Positions 2,695 through 37,014 of a stretch of 37,014 nucleotides of DNA are shown here, one piece after another. The notes below the pieces were generated by a model that saw only the letters and a list, made by a program, of their open reading frames with translations, ran no database searches and had not been told where the DNA came from. The position numbers were made by a program, and so were the translations under genes. Every line of letters starts with the position of its first letter. The stretch's first letter is position 1. The stretch covers positions 1-37,014 of the IMG/VR virus record IMGVR_UViG_3300033183_000049; one strand, 5' to 3'. The stretch comes from a virus.

Positions 2695-5588
2695 TGGGTT
2701 TGGTCAACTTAGACGGTAGTCCTCTTAATTTTACAGCAGTTAACCCGTTGTCTACAGGTCAACAACAGCAGAACACACTTCCTGACTATAGTTGGATGAC
2801 TCCTGCAGCACAGCCTATGTTTGAAACAGCTCCTGTGGTTGACTTGGGTATTGAAACTATTCAACCTATTGAAACTGTCGTTGACCCGTTTGCTGATACT
2901 ACTGTAGACGCAGCTCCTGTTTATGACACCCCTACCTATGTAGCTATAGGGCAAGACGAACAGTTGATGGGTAGTGACCTTGATACTATCTGGGGTAACT
3001 TACGCTCTAATGAAAACCAATACGCCAACACCTATGGAGGCTCTGAAGCAGAGCAACGTATGGCGTACTACGCAGACCCCACTGGTTACGATGCGGGTAT
3101 TCGGGATTTAACCAGCGGTATTCGCCAAGGTGAGCAGGATTACTTAGATTGGGCTACTGAGAATGAAGTGTCAGCTTTTAATTACACAGGTGACCCTAAC
3201 AAGTTTCAAGCTGAAAAAGTATTCTTAAACACCACTGATTTATCAAAAGACCAAGCAATGCGTTTGTTTCAGTTGCAAGACCCTGAGATGTACAGTTACT
3301 TGTCAAGCAAAGGTTCTTGGGTTGACTCCGATGGTGGTGTTCGTTTTGAGTGGGATAACCCTAGCTTTGCTGAACAGTACGCAATTCCATTAGCTAACCT
3401 TGCCTTAAGCTTAGGAAGCTTAGGCACTGGCGGTGCTTGGAATCTTGCTAATACAGCAATAAGCTTAGCTACTGGTGAACTGTCAGTAAAGGACTTCATC
3501 AAGCAGGTGGCAATAAACATCGCCGCAGGTGAACTTGGGGATATGTTGGGTGAAGCAGCAGCTACCTCAGAAACCTATAAGATGGTCAGAGACGCTGTGT
3601 CGGACGTCACTGGTTTAGACACACTTAGCACCGAAGCTATCCTTAATGATGTAGCAGGTAATGTTGCCGTTGGTAACACAGACTTAGAGAGTATTGCTGT
3701 AAGTGCCATTGATACATACAATAAAGCCAATGCCCCTGTGGCTGAATCTAAAGTAGAGGCTCAACAACAGCAAACATTAGTAGACCCTAATGCAGGTCTT
3801 TTATTTACTACTGGTTCAGACGCTCGTGCACCTGTGGCTAGTATTGAGACTGCGCCTTTAGTTGATGACCCTCTGGGTACTACTGAGGCTGCACAAAACT
3901 TTGTAGCAACTCCAGATGTAGTACCAGAAGAAACTGTTGTTACTGATGTAGCTTCACCTTCAGGTATGCTTACAGACACTACCGCACCTACACTAAGTTA
4001 TGACAAATGGTATAACGAAGTTAACTCTCTAGGGGAAGTTCAGTATCTAAAAGACGCTAACGGCAATACGGTCGAAGGTGTCTATGTTAAAGATGGTAAG
4101 ATAGTTGCAGACCCCTTGCTTAACGATCAAATGAGCGCAGGGTCTAAGTTATTGTTGGAAGAGTACGTCCCTGCAATGCAAGAGAAATTAGACAGTGGTG
4201 AGCTATTTACAGGGTCAACTGTTGAAGTATCAGCAACTGAGCATTCTAAAATTGCTGACATGGTTATGGATGAAACAACCTATTTAGATAACCTAAGTGA
4301 CTTGTTTACACCGATTGATAAGCCAGAAGAGGTTGTCGTCACAGCGCAGCCTGAGACTCCACAAGACACTACTTATGATTTAGCTGAGACTTCTCCTTTA
4401 GATTTACAAGACCCCACGTTGGTCTTTACACCCCCTACGCAACCAGAGCCTGTAGAACCTACGCCTACAGAACCTACTCAAGACACAGGAGGTCAACAAG
4501 GAGGTCAACAAGGAGGTCAACAAGGAGGCGGCATGATGCAACCTACTGTACCAACTCCAGTAGAACCTGCTCAACCACGGCAACCAGAGCCTACGCAACC
4601 AACACCAGTTGACCCTACTAAGTCAGAAGAATACAAGGCTTTACAAGGTGACCTAGAAAAAGCCAATGAAGCTAAAAGTGGACTTGAGTCAGAACTAGAA
4701 GACACCAAAGCTGCTTTGGATGACGCTAAAGCTGAGTACGATAACTTGCTTGATAAGTCCAGTGATGAAGCTAAAGGTTTACAAGAAGACATAGACGCAC
4801 TTGAGTTAGGTTTAGAGGGTGTACAGTCAGACCTTGATGCTGCCAATGCTACTGTCTCTGCTAAACAAGGTGAACTAAACGTAGCTAAAGAAGACTACGC
4901 AGCTCTACAGGAACAAGGTAAAGCAGATGTAGCTGAAGCTAAAGCTGAAGGTGAAAAAGCCGTAGAAGCTGCTAAGGCTGAAGGTGAACAAAACGTCAAG
5001 GACGCTGTAGCTGCAGGTGAACAAGCCGTAGCAGACGCCAAAGCCGAAGGTGAGCAAGCTGTTAAAGACGCAGTAGCTGAAGGTGAAGCCGCTGTTAAAG
5101 CTGCAGAAGCTGAAGGTGAAGCTGCTGTTAAAGCTGCTAAAGAAGCTGCAGACAAAGCTGTAGCAGACGCCAAAGCTGCAGGAGAGAAGGCTGTCAAGGA
5201 TGCTGAGGCTAAGGCTGCTTCAGATGCTAAGGCTGCTAAGGAAGCCTCTGACAAAGCTCTAGCGGACGCTAAAGCTGCAGGACAAGCTGCTGTAGATGCT
5301 GCAGTTGCTGCAGTTGCTGCAGGTATTGCTGCTGCAGGTGAAGCAAGAGCTGAAGGATTTGGAGAAGGTAAAGAAGAGGGATATGGTGAAGGTTATGGCG
5401 AGGGTCTTGGAGAAGGTAAAGCCCAGGGATATGGTACTGGGTTATTAGCAGGACAACAAAGGGCAGGTGGTCAGGCATTTACACCATACACAGGAAATAT
5501 TAATACACAGCTTACTCGCGTAGAGTACCCACAACAACAAACAGCAATGGATTACGTAGACCAATTATTAGCGAGATTTAGACAATGA
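2694..5588 (+). CDS. Large virion-associated protein with several low-complexity repeat modules (964 aa)
   Basis: TAATG overlap with the upstream gene and the long uninterrupted ORF. It contains a P/T/Q-rich linker, (GGQQ)3, a coiled-coil stretch, 12 hendecad repeats and G-aromatic-G-E repeats. It sits directly upstream of the putative tail genes. Confidence 0.7.
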   Translation: MGLVNLDGSPLNFTAVNPLSTGQQQQNTLPDYSWMTPAAQPMFETAPVVDLGIETIQPIETVVDPFADTTVDAAPVYDTPTYVAIGQDEQLMGSDLDTIWGNLRSNENQYANTYGGSEAEQRMAYYADPTGYDAGIRDLTSGIRQGEQDYLDWATENEVSAFNYTGDPNKFQAEKVFLNTTDLSKDQAMRLFQLQDPEMYSYLSSKGSWVDSDGGVRFEWDNPSFAEQYAIPLANLALSLGSLGTGGAWNLANTAISLATGELSVKDFIKQVAINIAAGELGDMLGEAAATSETYKMVRDAVSDVTGLDTLSTEAILNDVAGNVAVGNTDLESIAVSAIDTYNKANAPVAESKVEAQQQQTLVDPNAGLLFTTGSDARAPVASIETAPLVDDPLGTTEAAQNFVATPDVVPEETVVTDVASPSGMLTDTTAPTLSYDKWYNEVNSLGEVQYLKDANGNTVEGVYVKDGKIVADPLLNDQMSAGSKLLLEEYVPAMQEKLDSGELFTGSTVEVSATEHSKIADMVMDETTYLDNLSDLFTPIDKPEEVVVTAQPETPQDTTYDLAETSPLDLQDPTLVFTPPTQPEPVEPTPTEPTQDTGGQQGGQQGGQQGGGMMQPTVPTPVEPAQPRQPEPTQPTPVDPTKSEEYKALQGDLEKANEAKSGLESELEDTKAALDDAKAEYDNLLDKSSDEAKGLQEDIDALELGLEGVQSDLDAANATVSAKQGELNVAKEDYAALQEQGKADVAEAKAEGEKAVEAAKAEGEQNVKDAVAAGEQAVADAKAEGEQAVKDAVAEGEAAVKAAEAEGEAAVKAAKEAADKAVADAKAAGEKAVKDAEAKAASDAKAAKEASDKALADAKAAGQAAVDAAVAAVAAGIAAAGEARAEGFGEGKEEGYGEGYGEGLGEGKAQGYGTGLLAGQQRAGGQAFTPYTGNINTQLTRVEYPQQQTAMDYVDQLLARFRQ
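4488..4528 (+). repeat. Perfect 12-nt tandem repeat (ggaggtcaacaa x3.4) encoding (GGQQ)n
   Basis: Units at 4488-4499, 4500-4511 and 4512-4523 are identical, followed by a partial unit ggagg. Confidence 0.9.
4938..5333 (+). repeat. Twelve in-frame 33-nt (11-residue) repeats, consensus A-[KV]-A-E-G-E-x-A-V-x-D
   Basis: The translated stretch AKAEGEKAVEA...AVAAVAAGIAA partitions exactly into 12 x 11 residues. Units 5076-5108 and 5109-5141 are near-identical at the DNA level. Confidence 0.8.
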
Positions 5589-7985: not shown

Positions 7986-8848
7986 TGGCTATGGATTTGA
8001 GTACACTAGGTGGCTTAGGTTTATTATATGGGGCATACAAGACACAAAAAGATGCGTTGTCTGATTATGCTAAAGGTGTTGGCGCATCTACTGAAGCTGC
8101 AATGAGCAGGTATATGCCTAACTTAGAATTTAAACCATTTACTGTAACAACTACAACAGGTGCTACATCTGGTTATGGTGCTGATGGTTTAAAAATGACA
8201 GCTTCTCCACAAGAACAAGCACTACAAAATCAGTTGTTTCAACAAGCACAACAACAATATGGTATTGCAGGTCAAGATATTGGAGGACGTACGCAAGATA
8301 TCTACGGGATGATGCGAGCTGCACAAACCCCCCAAGAAGAACGTGACCGTCTTGCTATGGAGGAACGTTTGGCTGCACAAGGTCGTCTTGGTGTACAAAC
8401 TGCACAATACGGTGGTACTCCCGAACAACTAGCATTTGCTAAAGCTCAACAAGAAGCACAGAATCAAGCTTACCTTGGTGCTAGACAAGCTGCTTTAGGT
8501 GAGCAACTTCAAGCAGCTAAATTGGGTGGTAGTATGTTTACTGAGGCTTACTTACCTCAAGCACAAATGCTTAATGCCTATCAGCAAGGATTATCAGGTG
8601 CTCAGCTTGAACAGCAAGCACGTCAGCAATATGGACTGTCTGGTCTTGAAACTTCGTTGTCTGCAGAAGATGCAAGACTACAAGCTATGCTTGGTCAAGC
8701 TAATCTAACTGGTGGTGCTTTGACTGGATTAGCAAATGTTGTTATGCCACAAATTAATCCACAAACAGGGCAGCCAATTGCAAATACAGGATTGTTTGGC
8801 AGCTATACCTTAAGCGATTTGTATAACGACATTAAGAGTTGGATTTAA
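7985..8848 (+). CDS. Gln/Ala-rich putative internal virion (ejection) protein (287 aa)
   Basis: TAATG overlap. The composition is Q/A/G-rich and helical. Its position matches T7 gp13/14-type genes between the tail tube and the large internal protein. Confidence 0.45.
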   Translation: MAMDLSTLGGLGLLYGAYKTQKDALSDYAKGVGASTEAAMSRYMPNLEFKPFTVTTTTGATSGYGADGLKMTASPQEQALQNQLFQQAQQQYGIAGQDIGGRTQDIYGMMRAAQTPQEERDRLAMEERLAAQGRLGVQTAQYGGTPEQLAFAKAQQEAQNQAYLGARQAALGEQLQAAKLGGSMFTEAYLPQAQMLNAYQQGLSGAQLEQQARQQYGLSGLETSLSAEDARLQAMLGQANLTGGALTGLANVVMPQINPQTGQPIANTGLFGSYTLSDLYNDIKSWI

Positions 8849-8859
8849 GGAGAACAGTT

Positions 8860-9771
8860 ATGGCGTTTAATAGAAGTATAGGTATGCTATCAGGTGACCC
8901 ACGGTATGACTTAGGTGCTCCTACAACATCAATGCAAGTAGGTCAACAACTAGGTAGTATGTTTGGTCGTGGTTTAGGCATAGCTGCGGGACGTGATGTA
9001 CGCAGTGCTGAGCAGATACAAAAAGCAGCTACAGGTGAAGCAGTTCAAAAAGCATTAGCGTCTAATGACCCTGCTCAAGTCAGAGCTATAGCAGGTCAAT
9101 TGGCTAGTGTTGATTCTACGTTGTCTTTAAAACTTCTTGATATTGCTAAGAAGATGGAAAGCGATAAAGCTGAAGCTGACAAAATTAATGCAAGACAATC
9201 TGTCATTTTAAATTCAGTTCAAGCAAGTGACTTAGATAATAAAGAAAAAGCAGAGTTAATGAAACTGTATGCTACTGGTGCAATCAATGAAGAAGAGGTT
9301 TTGAAGCGTACGGGTTTTATTAAACAAGAGGGTAAAGGCTTTACGCTAAGCCCCGGTGAGGTTCGTTATGACGCTGAAGCTAATGTCATTGCTGAGGGGA
9401 AGCCAAAAGAAAAAGAACCTAGAATTGTGTCACAACCTTCTGTTAGTAAACGTGATGTTGAAACTTTAAACACAATCATTAAAGATAATCCTGATTTAGA
9501 AAAAGAATTTACATCTGAAGGAATTTTCTTTGATAGTTTTGATAGCGAAAAAGTTAAAGCTAAAGCTGCTGACATCTACTTAGAACAGAAAACTAATGGT
9601 GGTACTTTAGCAGATGCGGCTCGTCGTGTATTAGGTAAAACAACATCTTCTTCTACTTCTAAAGCTGAAGATGATTTCTTAGCTACTTTAAATTCACAAG
9701 AAAAAGATGCTTATTTAAATAAAATGTCAGAAAGTGAAAAAGCAGCAGCACGTAAGGAAAGAGGATTTTAA
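8860..9771 (+). CDS. Putative internal virion protein (303 aa)
   Basis: The ORF-track start at 8839 is TTG. ATG 8860 is preceded by AAGGAGAA (8847-8854). The protein is Lys/Glu-rich and helical. The function call is positional only. Confidence 0.45.
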   Translation: MAFNRSIGMLSGDPRYDLGAPTTSMQVGQQLGSMFGRGLGIAAGRDVRSAEQIQKAATGEAVQKALASNDPAQVRAIAGQLASVDSTLSLKLLDIAKKMESDKAEADKINARQSVILNSVQASDLDNKEKAELMKLYATGAINEEEVLKRTGFIKQEGKGFTLSPGEVRYDAEANVIAEGKPKEKEPRIVSQPSVSKRDVETLNTIIKDNPDLEKEFTSEGIFFDSFDSEKVKAKAADIYLEQKTNGGTLADAARRVLGKTTSSSTSKAEDDFLATLNSQEKDAYLNKMSESEKAAARKERGF

Positions 9772-31298: not shown

Positions 31299-32111
31299 AT
31301 GGCAGCAGTAATACTCGAAGAGCGTCCTGAAGACGATAACTCAGAAGACAATCAAGAAACTATAGAACAGGAAGCTCAAATAGAGCCAACCCCTTCAGAA
31401 CCCCAAGAACAAGAACAAACTGAACAAGAAGACGACATTCCCGAGAAGTACCGAGGCAAATCAGCCAAAGAACTTGCGAGGATGCACCAAGAAGCTGAGA
31501 AGCTCTTAGGGCGTCAAAGTAGTGAAGTTGGGGAGTTACGCAAGGTTGTTGATAGTTACATTCAGACACAACTCTCAAACCAAGCACCACAACAACAACA
31601 AGAAGACGAGGATGTAGACTTCTTTGTTGACCCAGATAAAGCCGTAGCAAGAGCTATTGAGCGACATCCCAAGATTCGCCAAGCTGAAGAAGTGACGCAG
31701 CAATATAAGAAACAAAATGCTTTGTCTCAACTACAGCAAAAGCACCCAGATATGCAACAAATCTTAGGTGACCCTAAGTTTGCTGAATGGGTAAAGGGGT
31801 CTAATGTACGCACAAAGCTATTTGTTGAGGCAGACCAACAGTATGACTATGAAGCAGCCAATGAGTTGTTTGATATGTGGAAAGACCGCCAAGGTGTTGT
31901 TAATCAGACCTTAGCTGTAGAGAAACAGGAACGCAAACAACAAGTCAAAGCAGCTTCCACTGGTAATGCTAGAGGTAATCCTGATGGTCAAGTTAGAAAG
32001 ATATATCGTCGCGCTGATATTATTAAACTAATGAAAACAGACCCAGATCGCTATATGGCTATGTCCGATGAGATTATGCAAGCGTATCAAGAGGGTCGTG
32101 TTAAGAGCTAA
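31299..32111 (+). CDS. Scaffolding protein (270 aa)
   Basis: The N-terminus is very acidic and Gln-rich, and the body is helical. It sits immediately upstream of the capsid gene, which is the typical position. Confidence 0.6.
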   Translation: MAAVILEERPEDDNSEDNQETIEQEAQIEPTPSEPQEQEQTEQEDDIPEKYRGKSAKELARMHQEAEKLLGRQSSEVGELRKVVDSYIQTQLSNQAPQQQQEDEDVDFFVDPDKAVARAIERHPKIRQAEEVTQQYKKQNALSQLQQKHPDMQQILGDPKFAEWVKGSNVRTKLFVEADQQYDYEAANELFDMWKDRQGVVNQTLAVEKQERKQQVKAASTGNARGNPDGQVRKIYRRADIIKLMKTDPDRYMAMSDEIMQAYQEGRVKS

Positions 32112-32125
32112 TCTAGGAGATTATA

Positions 32126-32194
32126 ATGGCTACTTCAACTTTTCCATCAATGACCGGTGCGGTCGACAACACTAGCGCAGCTAAGTTTATCCCT
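32126..32194 (+). CDS. Major capsid protein, exon 1 (23 codons)
   Basis: SD AGGAGA (32115-20) and ATG 32126, encoding MATSTFPSMTGAVDNTSAAKFIP. The unspliced frame stops 3 codons later (TAA 32201-03). The last exon base, T32194, pairs as U.G in P1. Confidence 0.75.
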
Positions 32195-32767
32195 AACCTT
32201 TAATTTTTTTGGGGATGTAAAACCTTCTCTGAATAACTGGAAACCTACGGGTAATCAGAGGGAACACGACAGACTAACACACGCAGTTCGGAGGATTCCA
32301 TGAAGCGTATCAGTTGGAAGTATTTAGCAGGATTGGTAGACGGTGAAGCCTGTATTGACGTTCAAATCACTAAAGGTGTTTATGTGCGTCCAAGACTTAG
32401 AATAGGAATGGCACAGAACGCCATAGCTCTTTTGGGTTTATTACAGAATTCATTAGGTGGACATATAGAACACCGTGAGTCTAAGAACGAAAACTGGCAA
32501 GACAGTGCCACAATATCTTGGTCGGGCTACAAACAAGCCTGTCCAGTTCTTAGAAACATAGTCAACCATCTTTTCCTGAAGAGGGAGCAAGCCAGATTTT
32601 GTCTTTGGATGGAGACAAACATCAAAGGACGGCAGGTCAGCACAGAAGTGCGAGACGCTATCCGACAAGAGCTTAAGCTAATGAAGCGTGACCCGCACAG
32701 ACTAAGTGAGAAGGCCCAAGAGCGTATTCTTGGGATGCTATAGTCGGGACTCTTGCAATAGAGTTGG
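32195..32767 (+). mobile_element. Group I intron (573 nt) carrying a homing endonuclease gene
   Basis: P1 atccct (32189-94) pairs with ggggat (32211-16). P3 ccttctc (32223-29) pairs with gagaagg (32708-14). P7 gacta (32700-04) pairs with tagtc (32741-45). P8 cccaaga (32715-21) pairs with tcttggg (32728-34). P9 gactct (32748-53) pairs with agagtt (32760-65). The terminal G is at 32767. The CACAGACTAA and CTATAGTCGG strings resemble the conserved R and S core elements. Confidence 0.8.
32300..32743 (+). CDS. LAGLIDADG homing endonuclease, single-motif type (147 aa)
   Basis: The motif KYLAGLVDGEACI lies near the N-terminus, and the size is typical of homodimeric LAGLIDADG enzymes. The ORF lies wholly inside the intron, and its 3' end overlaps the P7/P3'/P8 core. 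Confidence 0.85.
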   Translation: MKRISWKYLAGLVDGEACIDVQITKGVYVRPRLRIGMAQNAIALLGLLQNSLGGHIEHRESKNENWQDSATISWSGYKQACPVLRNIVNHLFLKREQARFCLWMETNIKGRQVSTEVRDAIRQELKLMKRDPHRLSEKAQERILGML

Positions 32768-33625
32768 GAAATTTGGAGTGACGAGGTTATCGCTGCTTAC
32801 GAGAAGAACTTGGTTCTTGCTCCTTTGGTTAAAAAGCTATCTATGCAAGGCAAGAAAGGTGATACTATTCACATTCCTAAGCCTACTCGTGGTTCAGCTA
32901 ACGCTAAAGTAGAAAACCAAGCAGTAACCATTCAGAATGCTGTTGAAGACGAAGTAATCGTCACTATCAACAAGCACTTTGAATACTCACGTCTTATCGA
33001 AGACATCACTGAAGCTCAAGCATTAGCTTCTCTTCGCCAGTTCTACACTAGCGATGCAGGTTATGCCTTGGCTAAGCAAGTCGATGACGACATCTTTGCC
33101 TTAGGTAAGTCTTTCGGTGACGGTGATGGTTCTGACTGGACTAACTCAAACGTATACGAGTTGGGTACTGGCGGTGCTTTGGCTGCTTACGATGGCACTG
33201 TGTCTGCTAACGCATTCACTGACTTGACCATGCGTGAACTAGTACAAGCTATGGATGACGCTGACGCTCCTATGGACGGTCGTTCACTTGTTATCCCACC
33301 TGTACTACGTAATGCTATCCTTGGCATCGACCGTTACACTAGCTCAGACTTCGTTGCAGGTCGTGCGGTTAACAACGGCCAAATCGGTAACATCTACGGT
33401 GTAGACGTGTACGTAACTTCTAACTGCCCATCTTTGGAATCAAACGCTGCTCGCGTAGCTATGCTGTTCCATAAAGACTCTATGGTCTTGGCTGAGCAAA
33501 AAGGTGTTCGTTCACAGACTCAATACAAGCAAGAGTTCTTGGGTACTTTGTACACTGCAGACCGTTTATACGGTACTAAAGTTGTACGTCCTGAGACTGG
33601 CTTCGCAGTCGTAGTTGGTGCATAA
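32768..33625 (+). CDS. Major capsid protein, exon 2 (285 codons)
   Basis: The frame is open from 32768 (EIWSDEVIAAYEKNLVLAPLVKK...), whereas the ORF track only offers TTG 32810. Support comes from its position after the scaffold gene, the strong terminator downstream, and the remembered ...FIPEIWS...KGDT..IP N-terminal pattern of HK97-fold capsid proteins. Confidence 0.8.
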   Translation, partial: EIWSDEVIAAYEKNLVLAPLVKKLSMQGKKGDTIHIPKPTRGSANAKVENQAVTIQNAVEDEVIVTINKHFEYSRLIEDITEAQALASLRQFYTSDAGYALAKQVDDDIFALGKSFGDGDGSDWTNSNVYELGTGGALAAYDGTVSANAFTDLTMRELVQAMDDADAPMDGRSLVIPPVLRNAILGIDRYTSSDFVAGRAVNNGQIGNIYGVDVYVTSNCPSLESNAARVAMLFHKDSMVLAEQKGVRSQTQYKQEFLGTLYTADRLYGTKVVRPETGFAVVVGA

Positions 33626-33640
33626 GCACTAACGTTCTAA

Positions 33641-33670
33641 GGGGATTCTACGGAGTCCCCTTTCTCTTTT
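33641..33670 (+). terminator. Intrinsic terminator after the capsid gene
   Basis: Stem ggggattc (33641-48), loop tacg, stem gagtcccc (33653-60) with one G.U pair, followed by tttctctttt. Confidence 0.75.
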
Positions 33671-33706
33671 CTTTATTCGTTATCTTTCTTAGTAGGGGAC
33701 TTACTA

Positions 33707-34687
33707 ATGCCATTATACAGGGGCAGCGGAGGCGCAGGAGATTCATCTACAGATGCTTATGCGTCAACTATCTCTACGTACGCACAGACTGCTACTAACA
33801 AAGCTAATGAAGCATCCGCTAGTGCAACTGCGGCTTCTACGTCAGCAACTAATGCAGCCACTAGCGCAACTGCAGCTTCTACTTCAGCAACTAACGCAGC
33901 AACTTCAGAAACCAATGCATCCACATCGGCCTCAGGAGCTGCTACAAGCGCAGCTAACGCTGCCAGTAGTGCCACTGCAGCAGCCGCTAGTGAAACAGCA
34001 GCAGCAAGCTCTGAGAGTGCTTCAGCGACATCGGCTACTAATGCTGCTACTTCAGCAACTAATGCATCTACAAGTGAAACTAATGCAGCAACTTCAGCAA
34101 CATCAGCAAGTACCTCAGCAACTAATGCAGCTAATTCAGCAAGTGCAGCAAGTACGTCTGAGAGTAATGCGTCAACTTCTGCTACAAACGCTGCTACAAG
34201 TGAAACTAACGCAGCCACAAGTGCTACAGCAGCACAGGCAGTCTTAGACAACATTGAAGGTTTCTTTCTAGGGGCACAAGCAAGTAATCCTACAGTTGAC
34301 CTTAATGGCAATGCGTTGACTGCGGGCGACTGGTATCTAAACACTACTAACAACTCTACGTACATCTATGACGGTAGCAGTTGGAACACAATGAACCCAG
34401 ACCTCATTGGTGACACAACGCCACAACTAGGCGGTACATTGGACGCCAATGGTAACTCCATTGACATGGGTACTAACACCATTACTGACACTAAGGTTGG
34501 TAACTGGGATACAGCTTATGGATGGGGTGACCACGGTGCTGTAGGGTACATCACAGGATACACAGTTACTGAGGGTGACGTAACGGCACATCAGGCAGCC
34601 CTAAGTATCACTGAGTCACAAATAAGCGATCTACAAACATATTTAACAACAGTTGACGGTTTAACTATTGACGGAGGCACATTCTAA
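33707..34687 (+). CDS. Tail fibre protein with Ala/Ser/Thr heptad-repeat shaft (326 aa)
   Basis: There are about 20 heptads of the A[AS]TS[AE]TN type, followed by FLGAQASNPTVDLNGNALTAGDWYLNT...YIYDGSSW and LGGTLDANGNSI motifs that are common in phage fibres. It ends in TIDGGTF. Confidence 0.75.
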   Translation: MPLYRGSGGAGDSSTDAYASTISTYAQTATNKANEASASATAASTSATNAATSATAASTSATNAATSETNASTSASGAATSAANAASSATAAAASETAAASSESASATSATNAATSATNASTSETNAATSATSASTSATNAANSASAASTSESNASTSATNAATSETNAATSATAAQAVLDNIEGFFLGAQASNPTVDLNGNALTAGDWYLNTTNNSTYIYDGSSWNTMNPDLIGDTTPQLGGTLDANGNSIDMGTNTITDTKVGNWDTAYGWGDHGAVGYITGYTVTEGDVTAHQAALSITESQISDLQTYLTTVDGLTIDGGTF

Positions 34688-36595
34688 ATGGCGACCACGA
34701 TTAAACATAAAAGAGGAACTGCAGCTCCTACTGGTGGTGATTTAGCCGCAGGAGAACTTGGCCTCGACACAACAAACAAAAGAATCTACACCAGTACTAA
34801 TGGTACAGACATTATTGAAACTGGTGTAAACCCTGCCGCAGAAATCCAAGCAAACGCAGGTATTGCCTTACCAGATTCACAGAAGGCTACCTTTGGTGCT
34901 AGTGATGACTTGCAGATTTATCATGATGGTAGCAATAGTCGCATTGTTGATACAGGCACTGGGTCGCTGATACTGCAATCCAATCAGCTTGTATTTAAGA
35001 GTGCCGATGATTCAGAGATATTAGGTTATTCTGATGAAAACGGGGCATTTAATCTTTACTACAATGGTAGTCCCAAACTATCCACAACCTCCACAGGCAT
35101 TGACGTAACTGGTACTGTTACTGCTGATGGGCTGACTGTTAGTAAGCCTGGTTCTCAACAGATTTACTTTGATCGCAATGGTAGTTCTATAGGCTCAGGA
35201 AGTATTGGCGCTGATGTTAGCCAGGCTATGGGCATATGGGATACTGACGACAACAAAGTTGCAACTTTTTATCAGAATCAAGATGTAGCCTTCTACGAAG
35301 ACACTGGCACAACTGCTAAGTTCTTCTGGGATGCGTCTGCGGAGTCTTTGGGTATTGGTACTAGTAGTCCTAGCTATCCTTTACATATTTTAGGTTCACA
35401 TACTATTTATGGAGCAGAACTAGCCACAAGCTCTACAGCTACTACTAGCTACAACGTCATGCGATTCACACAGGGTACAGGTTCTGGTGCGCCTATAGGT
35501 TATGTAGGTACTGGTGGCAGTGCAACAAGTAACTCAGGCTTCGCAGGTGCTTTTGGTATAGGTACGCAGACATCAGCACCAGTTACGTTCTTGACTAACG
35601 ACGCAGAACGTATGCGTATCGACAGCAGCGGTAACTTGCTTGTTGGTAAGACTACAGCAAATAACACCACAGTCGGATTTACAGTGTATAACGACAATGG
35701 CTATTCGGTAGTTCGTGACAGTAACCCAGTAGGCATTTACAACCGATTGACAACCGATGGCGACATTGCAGTATTCCGCAAAGACGGCACAACTGTCGGG
35801 AGTATTGGTACTTATGATGGTCGTCCTTACTTAGCATCTACTACTTTAGGCATCCGTGTTTCAAATGCTTTGTTTCCGTCAAATACGTCAGGCGTAATTA
35901 CAGACGGTGCTTGTGATATTGGTGGGGCATCGGGACGCTTCAAAGACCTCTACCTATCAGGCGAGGCTAAGGTGACTTCATCAGGTGTAGACGGCACGTA
36001 TTCACCAATCTTACGGGGCATTTACTCTGGTAATAGCAACGAAACTAATACCATTGAAACAACAGTATCATCAGCTGCAGCAAACTCAGGCTTTAAGTTT
36101 AATGTATCAAACGGTGGCGGCTCTTCTGGCCAAACAGAAGCATTACGTATTACACGAGCAGGTACTTATGCGCCCTTGGGTATTCACTTAGGTGGCACAG
36201 GTTCGGCTAATCACTTGGATGATTATGAGACTGGGACGTTTACTCCTACATTAACCAACATATCAGGCGGTGCTATTACATATACTACCCAAACAGGACG
36301 CTACGCAAAAGTTGGTGATTTGGTAACAGTAGAGTATAAGATAACAGTTAATACCAATACACACACAACAGGAAATGTTGCAGTAGGGCTTCCATTCTCA
36401 AGTGGGTATAGTGGCGTTGTTGGTAACGGTTCTGTAGTTATAAACACAACAACGGTAAGCGATTTAACAGGGCATTCGTTCTTCTCTACTGATGCTAGTT
36501 CTCAGCTAACACGCTCAGGTGGTAACTATGTTACAGCAACGCAAATAACTAACGGCATTACTTTATCAGGATTTATTGTATACAGAACAGCTTAA
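34688..36595 (+). CDS. Tail fibre / receptor-binding protein (635 aa)
   Basis: The N-terminus IKHKRGTAAPTGGDLAAGELGLDTTNKRIYTS matches the conserved fibre N-terminal motif (Mtd-N-like, from memory). The body is Gly/Ser/Thr-rich and beta-type. Confidence 0.7.
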   Translation: MATTIKHKRGTAAPTGGDLAAGELGLDTTNKRIYTSTNGTDIIETGVNPAAEIQANAGIALPDSQKATFGASDDLQIYHDGSNSRIVDTGTGSLILQSNQLVFKSADDSEILGYSDENGAFNLYYNGSPKLSTTSTGIDVTGTVTADGLTVSKPGSQQIYFDRNGSSIGSGSIGADVSQAMGIWDTDDNKVATFYQNQDVAFYEDTGTTAKFFWDASAESLGIGTSSPSYPLHILGSHTIYGAELATSSTATTSYNVMRFTQGTGSGAPIGYVGTGGSATSNSGFAGAFGIGTQTSAPVTFLTNDAERMRIDSSGNLLVGKTTANNTTVGFTVYNDNGYSVVRDSNPVGIYNRLTTDGDIAVFRKDGTTVGSIGTYDGRPYLASTTLGIRVSNALFPSNTSGVITDGACDIGGASGRFKDLYLSGEAKVTSSGVDGTYSPILRGIYSGNSNETNTIETTVSSAAANSGFKFNVSNGGGSSGQTEALRITRAGTYAPLGIHLGGTGSANHLDDYETGTFTPTLTNISGGAITYTTQTGRYAKVGDLVTVEYKITVNTNTHTTGNVAVGLPFSSGYSGVVGNGSVVINTTTVSDLTGHSFFSTDASSQLTRSGGNYVTATQITNGITLSGFIVYRTA

Positions 36596-36647: not shown

Positions 36648-36875
36648 ATGGCACTTACTAAAGAACTAATCGTAGATAAAATTGAGATTGTCGCAGGTAC
36701 AGACGAAGACGGTAACACTGTCAACCATGTACAAGTACGCACAGCTACACGAGTCTTAGAAGACGGTGAGGTACTCAGCAGCTCTTATCACCGTCATGTG
36801 GTTAGCGAAGGTGATGACTACAGCAACGAAGACGCTAAAGTACAAGCAGTGTGTGCAGCGGTATTCACATCATGA
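36648..36875 (+). CDS. Hypothetical protein (75 aa)
   Basis: SD AAGAGGA upstream of ATG 36648, with an ATGA overlap to the next ORF. No motif recognised. Confidence 0.55.
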   Translation: MALTKELIVDKIEIVAGTDEDGNTVNHVQVRTATRVLEDGEVLSSSYHRHVVSEGDDYSNEDAKVQAVCAAVFTS

Positions 36876-37014
36876 TTACCTTAGACGACCTAATGACCTA
36901 CATCAACATAGCCACAGCAGTAGTTGCCGTGGCTTCAACCATAGCAAGCATGACGGATACACCAAAGGACGATGAGATCATTGGTAAAGTCTATAAGGTG
37001 CTTAACGTCTTTGC
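36872..37014 (+). CDS. Small membrane protein (holin-like candidate), 5' part; continues at window position 2
   Basis: ATG 36872 overlaps the upstream TGA. The ORF runs off the window end inside the 141-nt duplicated segment and closes at 169. Confidence 0.55.
   Translation, partial: MITLDDLMTYINIATAVVAVASTIASMTDTPKDDEIIGKVYKVLNVF
36874..37014. repeat. Terminal identical repeat, copy 2 (same as 1..141)
   Basis: Base-for-base identity with 1..141. Confidence 0.95.

Follow-up and report, generated by a model that had tools for sequence, protein, structure and literature searches.

A probable group I intron with a LAGLIDADG endonuclease gene splits a viral major capsid gene and belongs to a large uncatalogued family

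Group I introns with endonuclease genes are common in phages, and cases in capsid genes have been described in mycobacteriophage LittleE and the lactococcal phage Tuc2009 (PMC3706429). Splicing of the LittleE capsid intron was demonstrated by reverse transcription PCR and N-terminal protein sequencing (Pope et al., 2013; PMC3706429). A DNA-polymerase intron has been published for the podovirus LUZ24 (PMC10914365), and a passage in a further article mentions one within the gene for DNA polymerase in the T7-like phage phiL7 (cited in PMC10580990). Here a stretch of 37,014 nucleotides (nt) from a virus (IMG/VR record IMGVR_UViG_3300033183_000049, positions 1 to 37,014; hereafter the window) was analysed, in which the major capsid gene is split at 32195-32767 by an insert that is very probably a group I intron carrying the gene for a LAGLIDADG endonuclease.

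The LittleE locus is similar to that of the window in that the major capsid gene is split, exon 1 ends in U, the intron ends in G, and the intron endonuclease is related to the LAGLIDADG enzyme I-CreI (PMC3706429). However, LittleE, a siphovirus of 109 kb, infects a high-GC host, and its 819-bp intron carries the endonuclease gene on the opposite strand, with an HNH-like tail (PMC3706429), whereas in the window the open reading frame (ORF) is encoded in the sense direction and shares part of its sequence with the catalytic core. No sequence similarity between the two introns is detectable. The kind of element is already known from LittleE, and what is new is a large uncatalogued family in the capsid genes of aquatic phages; searches of the open-access literature found no description of such introns in the capsid genes of aquatic podoviruses. 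An earlier reading made from the letters of this DNA (the sequence-only reading) had called such an arrangement uncommon, which holds for this type of phage only, given the published LittleE and Tuc2009 cases.

The ORF that opens at ATG 32126 behind a Shine-Dalgarno sequence has just 25 codons and ends at TAA 32201-32203, and the earliest start for the body of the capsid gene in the ORF list is TTG 32810. When 32194 is joined to 32768 the frame is kept (69 + 858 nt), and the product is a protein of 308 amino acids (aa), ...AAKFIP^EIWSDEVIAAYEKNL... (the caret marks the junction), in which the join falls between the Pro23 and Glu24 codons and the junction peptide is AAKFIPEIWSDEVIAAYEK / FIPEIWSDEVIAAYEK. 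This spliced product matches PF19821 (Phage_capsid_2) at 51.2 bits (cut-off 25) and has thousands of homologues in a protein search; homologues of 307-319 aa cover 99-100% of its length at 71-91% identity. The best 120 homologues listed are 307-321 aa long, the lone exception being a 260-aa fragment (P0002) from the window's own contig. Many homologues are named 'N4-gp56 family major capsid protein' by JGI, and the protein is predicted to be of the HK97-like 'N4-gp56 / Phage_capsid_2' type. When 15 homologues were aligned, the N-terminus MATST..FIPEIWSDEVIAAYEKNLVLAPLV ran unbroken across the proposed junction (FIP^EIWSDE); one of them, P0001, is 91% identical to the spliced protein and exactly 308 aa long. 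The sequence-only reading had suggested this alignment with intron-less homologues as a check, and its outcome bears out both the in-frame join, with which the homologues are collinear, and the claim that joining restores an N-terminus of the FIPEIWS type, since hundreds of intron-less homologues of 307-319 aa carry MATST..FIPEIWSDE uninterrupted.

The boundaries of the insert can also be placed from DNA. Three intron-less relatives, namely L001 and L002 (the contigs of P0001) and L163 (37,012 nt), have the portal gene, a scaffold-like gene and the capsid gene in common order, and the uninterrupted site in the 3040-3100 region of L163 reads GCAGCTAAGTTTATTCCAGAGATTTGGAGTGACGAGG. BLAST alignments of the window with L163 and L001 stop at 32193 and restart at 32768, from which the insert spans 32195-32767 with an uncertainty of 1 nt. 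Two boundaries, CC^U..UUG^G and CCU^..UGG^, are both in frame and both have G before the 3' junction; only the latter has U before the 5' junction. The capsid gene is split by an exact, in-frame insert.

The insert length is a multiple of three (573 nt), the frame of its ORF is that of both exons, and LAGLIDADG domains occur in inteins, all of which would be in keeping with removal at the level of protein or translation, as an intein or by ribosomal bypassing. This explanation can be given practically no weight, as it is already refuted by the in-frame stops TAA 32201-03 and TAG 32741-43, which cut the ORF off from both exons. Moreover, 147 aa with one motif leave no room for an intein splicing domain, and the bypass in T4 gene 60 covers ~50 nt, so that 573 nt is far beyond it.

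A search with the endonuclease found related elements in 52 viral contigs, to which a conserved-motif scan added more, giving 56 distinct copies with both flanks. Splice sites were fixed from the capsid reading frame alone in the 48 copies that could be resolved. Just two junction pairs stay in frame in 41 of these 48; exactly one of the in-frame junctions has both U at position -1 and a terminal G, and that one gives 6/6 P1 pairs. With the guide sequence taken as the six bases ending two nt before a conserved AAAAC, P1 comprises 5-6 of 6 base pairs plus the U.G pair in all 48 copies, and the terminal intron G is likewise present at 48/48 frame-fixed junctions.

The insertion sites fall at four positions within 10 nt: one, used in the window, adjoins the Pro codon, and the others lie 6, 7 and 10 nt downstream of it. 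At each site the guide is complementary to the exon, and a U.G pair is found at the cleavage site in every case. For the site adjoining the Pro codon, exon ends ATCCCT and ATTCCT are matched by guides GGGGAT and GGGAAT. Further matched pairs are ATACCT with GGGTAT and TTGCCT with GGGCAA. The same holds for GAGGTT with GNCCTC at 6 nt, for AAATCT with GGATTT and ATCTCT with GGAGAT at 7 nt, and for TTTGGT with GCCAAA at 10 nt. P10 covaries with the start of exon 2 as well: at the 10-nt-downstream site the pairing is CAG/CUG in some copies and CUG/CAG in others, and GAAGU/AACUU and GAGAU/AUCUU are also found, the mean contiguous run being 4.6 bp as against 1.7 bp for mismatched partners. The P10 that the sequence-only reading had put forward thus exists, as 4 bp of GAAA/UUUU and not as the suggested 6 bp with AAUUUU.

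For the RNA structure, an alignment of 40 distinct ORF-deleted sequences (A3) was used. RNAalifold, unaided, recovered P1, P3, P4, P5, P8, P9 and the hairpin in front of the ORF; P6 and the pseudoknotted P7 were added before the pairs were counted. In the A3 core 98.0% of cells are paired; shuffling lowers this to 80.4%, and sliding the partners by 1-3 columns lowers it to 38-42%. Double-sided changes occur in 31 of 49 pairs, and none of 500 shuffles reaches any observed measure. By helix, there are double changes in 5/6 pairs of P1, where the U.G pair is invariant, in 5/7 pairs of P8 and in 5/6 pairs of P9; P3 shows compensatory changes in 5/7 pairs with 99.6% of cells paired, P5 covaries in 4/4 pairs, and P4 is invariant save for G.U/G-C exchange. 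P7 is 100% paired and two of its six pairs vary, three relatives having G-C in place of A-U and one having G-C in place of C-G, while its G-C pair is invariant in the 40 sequences; in the window A32699 is unpaired. The two outer pairs of the helix that holds the ribosome-binding-site (RBS) hairpin ('helix 5') in A3 are an artefact of ORF deletion. It is this covariation in 40 relatives, and not the window sequence alone, that settles that the RNA structure is beyond chance. The pairings that had been proposed for P1, P3, P8 and P9, with the terminal G32767, are all present, and those helices show compensatory changes in A3.

The features of the locus are listed in Table 1. The core is minimal, with P1, no P2, P3, P4/P5, a short P6, P7, P8 and P9, and group I introns have their helices in this order, with the P3/P7 pseudoknot included. 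P5 is capped by a UACG tetraloop, J4/5 and J5/4 are A-rich internal loops, J3/4 is UGAAUAA, P3' runs directly into P8, and there is no P7.1/7.2. The insertion in the P6 loop consists of a conserved P6 extension, the RBS hairpin of the endonuclease and the ORF; without the ORF the core measures ~185 nt. In many relatives AGGAGG lies within the loop and 3' arm of the RBS hairpin. The P7 3' strand begins with the ORF stop, TAG 32741-43, and the last ~18 endonuclease codons double as P6', P7, P3', P8 and J8/7. This overlap stretch, GACCCGCACAGACTAAGTGA, is nearly invariant at every codon position among relatives, which would fit a double constraint.

Table 1. Features of the split capsid gene and its insert, with positions in the window
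Feature	Position	Strand	Support or detail
Shine-Dalgarno AGGAGA, capsid gene	32112..32117	+	8 nt before ATG 32126; identical in intron-less L001, L002, L163
Capsid exon 1, 23 codons MATSTFPSMTGAVDNTSAAKFIP, last base U32194	32126..32194	+	N-terminus conserved in intron-less homologues
P1 hairpin: AUCCCU 32189-94, loop L1 32195-32210, guide GGGGAU 32211-16	32189..32216	+	U32194.G32211 at 5' splice site
Probable group I intron, 573 nt	32195..32767	+	absent in L001, L002, L163; covariation-backed structure
P10: guide UUUU with exon 2 GAAA	32207-10 with 32768-71	+	4 bp adjoining guide sequence; pairing with exon 2
P3 5' strand CCUUCUC	32223..32229	+	7/7 paired with 32708-14; preceded by J1/3 GUAAAA 32217-22; no P2
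P4 CUGG 32237-40/UCAG 32255-58 around P5 ACC 32243-45/GGU 32250-52	32237..32258	+	RNAalifold unaided
P6 5' strand GGG, with CCC 32692-94	32260..32262	+	100% paired, one double change
RBS hairpin GGA-GGAU-UCC with endonuclease Shine-Dalgarno GGAGG	32290..32299	+	directly before ATG 32300; inner 4 pairs covary
Predicted single-motif LAGLIDADG endonuclease gene, 147 aa	32300..32743	+	Pfam, family profile, AlphaFold model
P7 5' strand CAGACUA, A32699 bulged	32698..32704	+	pairs with 32741-46; J6/7 GCA 32695-97, J7/3 AGU 32705-07
P3 3' strand GAGAAGG	32708..32714	+	pairs with 32223-29
P8 hairpin CCCAAGA, loop GCGUAU, UCUUGGG	32715..32734	+	32715-21/32728-34, 7/7 paired
P7 3' strand UAGUCGG	32741..32747	+	preceded by J8/7 AUGCUA 32735-40
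P9 hairpin GACUCU 32748-53/AGAGUU 32760-65, then GG with terminal G32767	32748..32767	+	compensatory changes
Capsid exon 2, 285 codons + stop	32768..33625	+	Pfam Phage_capsid_2; collinear with homologues

For P7, the CAGACUA/UAGUCGG arrangement of the sequence-only reading is present and is kept paired among the relatives, with the proviso that its 5' strand is the second CAGACTA copy (32698-32704), directly 5' of P3'. The region may correspond to that of the Tetrahymena large-subunit (LSU) rRNA intron (subgroup IC1), with CACAGACUAA...AUAGUCGG in both and a bulged A beside the putative G-binding G-C pair. Unlike the Tetrahymena intron, that of the window has no P2/P2.1, P5abc or P9.1/P9.2. 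Introns of the T4 td/nrdB type are like that of the window in interrupting an essential phage gene, in having the endonuclease ORF out of the P6 loop, and in placing the endonuclease RBS in a hairpin. They differ in that they carry GIY-YIG or HNH enzymes and the extra P7.1/P7.2 of subgroup IA2, whereas in the window P3' leads straight into P8, P2 is missing and, as set out below, Rfam is silent.

Three other pairings were considered and rejected. Single-sequence folding of the ORF-deleted RNA, which recovered P1, P8 and P9, favoured CCUUCUCUG with CAGAGGG; among relatives the P3 strand varies while CAGAGGG is invariant. CACGC 32279-83 with GCGUG 32686-90, tried as a P6 stem, is not kept among relatives, and the first CAGACTA (32270), tried as P7, has no P3' after it.

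This other copy, CAGACTA(A) at 32270-32276, sits in the P6 extension. In the same extension GCAGUUC 32283-89 (followed by CAC in many relatives) resembles what we presume to be the Tetrahymena P6'-J6/7 segment directly preceding P7; by analogy, the ORF might have been inserted beside J6/7 of an ancestral intron that had none. A 9-mer, ATGAAGCGT, occurs both at the start of the ORF (32300-32308) and at 32682-32690, 53 nt before the end of the ORF and just upstream of P6'/P7, and in the relative L042 ATGAAGCG is repeated at both equivalent places. These repeats may reflect conserved MKR peptides or be a trace of ORF entry into the ribozyme.

Several results weigh against a spliced group I intron. 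The Rfam search that the sequence-only reading had proposed for the intron region failed: RF00028 (Rfam 15) matched nothing in the complete window at its gathering score, nothing in 32100-32850 and 32670-32790 at E<=10, and nothing in 20 related loci at E<=1. As a control, the ORF-bearing T4 td intron scored 40.3 bits against RF00028 (E 2.7e-8, cut-off 50); the model is conservative for phage introns, yet it sees td and not the window intron. Scans for ORF-less copies returned only ORF-bearing introns and chance matches with AATAACTGG..CAGAGGGAAC, and only chance matches with AGAGGGAAC..CAGACTAAG. P6 (GGG/CCC) is the weakest helix, with only 3 bp and a single compensatory event (GAG/CUC in L009), and the RBS hairpin in the window also has only 3 bp. 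Folded as a single sequence, the ORF-deleted RNA shows no unusual stability (z = -1.09), and the likeness of P7 to the Tetrahymena G-binding site is tentative. Finally, a look-up of the exact spliced protein found no entry in the protein collection searched.

Taken at face value, the missing covariance-model match, together with the 260-aa capsid fragment (P0002) that the gene caller of the source database gave, would suit a locus that does not splice at all, with a free-standing endonuclease gene inside the capsid gene and a capsid protein starting at TTG 32810 or ATG 32852, or else a defective genome. We consider this very unlikely. Conservation with intron-less homologues extends over exon 1 and the first 14 exon-2 codons, which would be unexpected for untranslated sequence. 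On either side of the ORF, the non-coding flanks change in a compensatory way helix by helix, and the guides track the exons; this can be explained only by an RNA with recognition of its own splice sites, and a like arrangement is present in >50 contigs, in many different capsid genes. Thus, the group I assignment failed the RF00028 check and withstood the stronger comparative test, with compensatory changes in all helices drawn. The observation of the sequence-only reading, in which the sequence and the ORF list agree on AGGAGA with the short ORF at ATG 32126, the YLAGLVDGEA ORF and TTG 32810 as the only capsid start, is confirmed, and its interpretation as a group I intron that harbours a LAGLIDADG endonuclease gene is supported.

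The 147-aa product of the intron ORF, with its motif YLAGLVDGEA, matches PF00961 (LAGLIDADG_1) at 28.9 bits (cut-off 23.1) and has 370 homologues in public data, mostly of 147-158 aa. The family profile matches solved LAGLIDADG enzymes, including the single-motif I-CvuI, I-MsoI and I-CreI. An AlphaFold2 model of the protein (predicted local distance difference test, pLDDT, 81; predicted template-modelling score, pTM, 0.76) was compared with known structures; Foldseek placed I-CvuI and I-CreI best (template-modelling score, TM, 0.63-0.66, probability 1.00), and the best PDB matches are I-CvuI, I-CreI and I-MsoI (TM 0.60-0.67). Profile and model together support a LAGLIDADG endonuclease of the I-CreI-like class, as had been proposed along with the overlap of its 3' end with the ribozyme core, where the stop codon indeed lies inside P7'. 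The enzyme most likely acts as a homodimer, because it has one motif in ~150 aa, as in I-CvuI, I-MsoI and I-CreI.

These three enzymes, from green-algal chloroplast rRNA introns, share with the window protein the single motif, a size of ~150-170 aa and an origin in a group I intron, and the window protein has their alpha-beta-beta-alpha-beta-beta-alpha core in prediction. It differs from them in sequence, at only 16-23% identity, in residing in a capsid gene and not in rRNA, and in having C-terminal helices encoded by the ribozyme core. In phage records, tblastn with the endonuclease found only ~32% identical genes of Gordonia and Mycobacterium phages. These relatives (H71-H87, e.g. MH976507.1 2844-3131) lie beside or inside DNA methylase genes, and identical sequences among them are labelled LAGLIDADG or HNH depending on the annotator.

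The junction search found the uninterrupted ..ATCCCTGAAATTTGGAG.. site in 39 metagenome contigs. That these represent spliced RNA of the window phage was considered and rejected: the best matches have only ~67-72% DNA identity to the window, which marks them as distant intron-less alleles. Potential target sites thus occur across distantly related capsid genes. Targeting a widely conserved sequence is the usual strategy of homing endonucleases.

Whether the element still moves is a separate matter from whether its RNA splices, and the copy in the window is, in our estimate, probably still mobile. One difficulty for mobility is that this copy has Ala at position 17, adjoining the catalytic Glu16, where at least 90% of aligned relatives have Gly. 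LAGLIDADG proteins of organelle introns can also double as maturases. The ribozyme could therefore work in an element that has lost its mobility, with the 147-aa protein inactive or a maturase only and the intron a fixed passenger. This appears unlikely, though not negligibly so. The endonuclease ORF is intact, and many other full-length copies share 85-89% identity with it; across 25 diverse members there are 42 invariant residues, including E16, K94, the C-terminal helices and a C-terminal K-R-D-P-H-R-L-S-E stretch. The spread over many capsid genes and four nearby sites requires repeated mobility, and the endonuclease P0147 likewise has Ala at position 17, so that the change is tolerated in more than one lineage.

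The sequence-only reading went too far in writing of an active homing element; we infer homing, as we do splicing, catalysis and endonuclease activity, in the following scheme. In the late capsid transcript, the last six exon bases, AUCCCU, would pair with the guide GGGGAU to form P1, whose U32194.G32211 pair would mark the point of cleavage. A free guanosine lodged in P7 (CAGACUA/UAGUCGG) would attack after U32194; P10 would hold exon 2, and the terminal G32767 would take the place of the cofactor, leading to ligation of the exons and an mRNA for the 308-aa capsid protein. In co-infection, the endonuclease would cut intron-less capsid alleles around ..AAGTTTATYCCA^GAGATTTGGAG.., and repair from the intron-bearing genome would copy the intron in. 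A ribosome on the ORF must unfold the core, so that translation of the ORF and folding of the ribozyme should be mutually exclusive on one RNA, and each transcript would be either translated or spliced, not both. In T4 introns, the placing of the RBS in a hairpin limits endonuclease expression, and the RBS hairpin and the overlap of ORF and core may serve as regulation here.

Two relatives carry more than one intron in the capsid gene. In L010 (IMGVR_UViG_3300021962_004332, 1306-2920) two group I introns lie 3 nt apart, the gene reading ..CCCGAAATCT, intron A, GGT, intron B, CTGATGAAATT.., and removal of both restores FIPEIWSDEII. Intron A belongs to the family of the window intron and has a single-motif ORF; intron B, with a core of its own (CACAGACTAAGTGATAAGG...TAGTCGG), holds a larger ORF region in which there are two LAGLIDADG-like motifs. 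The junction left by the removal of intron A would lie within P1 of intron B, which suggests ordered splicing. In L069 (IMGVR_UViG_3300022562_000499, ~8240-9000) an intron of the family occupies the position used in the window, immediately behind the Pro codon, and exon 2 is interrupted ~37 nt from its start by a second, related intron, AATAACTGGAACCGCGAGGAACCAGAGGGAAC, whose LAGLIDADG ORF is a different one.

Taken jointly, these data can be read, tentatively and at less than even chance, as a large lineage of minimal introns invisible to Rfam that is specialised on the FIPEIWSDE stretch of aquatic podovirus capsid genes, has moved among at least four positions by retuned guides, is sometimes stacked, is either translated or spliced on any one RNA, and could be a weapon between co-infecting phages. 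If this were true, the element in the window would be more than a passive parasite. An intron endonuclease of phage PhiPA3 has been shown to act as such a weapon (PMC11620839).

Four points are of interest: the family is large, Rfam does not see it, its members have been retargeted between adjacent splice sites, and some relatives have tandem introns. Gene callers shorten the capsid protein of these phages, as in the 260-aa fragment for the window genome, and Rfam-based pipelines overlook the intron entirely; capsid phylogenies and abundance estimates for this widespread group would therefore mis-handle intron-bearing genomes. If the intron is spliced as proposed, the most abundant structural protein of the phage depends on efficient RNA self-splicing. 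The family further constitutes a set of natural covariation data, with at least four sites, matching guides and tandem introns, in which ribozyme and endonuclease retargeting can be followed together, and it supplies compact I-CreI-like endonucleases that would have related but shifted targets.

With regard to the genome as a whole, positions 1-141 of the window are identical to 36874-37014, an exact terminal overlap of 141 nt. The window is thus probably a complete genome of ~36.9 kb from a podovirus-like phage, circularly assembled or terminally redundant, which indicates that an intron-bearing genome circulates. Its genes include those for ribonucleotide reductase, a family A DNA polymerase, a primase-helicase, terminase, portal and tail-fibre proteins, and the tail fibre is similar to those of pelagiphages, roseophages and OM43 phages. 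The nearest cultured homologues of the capsid protein are those of the cyanobacterial podoviruses A-4L and Pf-WMP3, at 31-36% identity. When 31300-34700 was compared by blastn with 50,697 phage records, matches were confined to the tail-fibre region, and the intron and capsid region had no match at the DNA level.

Two features follow the capsid gene. At 33641-33674, 16 nt past the capsid stop, a GC-rich hairpin identified by eye, GGGGAUUCUACGGAGUCCCC, is followed by a U-rich run and looks like a candidate intrinsic terminator that would close the capsid transcript. Beyond it, the ORF at 33707-34687 contains long low-complexity repeats rich in Ala, Ser and Thr, ATSATNAATSETNA; it is the sole part of 31300-34700 with DNA similarity to cultured phages and matches tail-fibre genes of pelagiphages, roseophages and T5-like phages.

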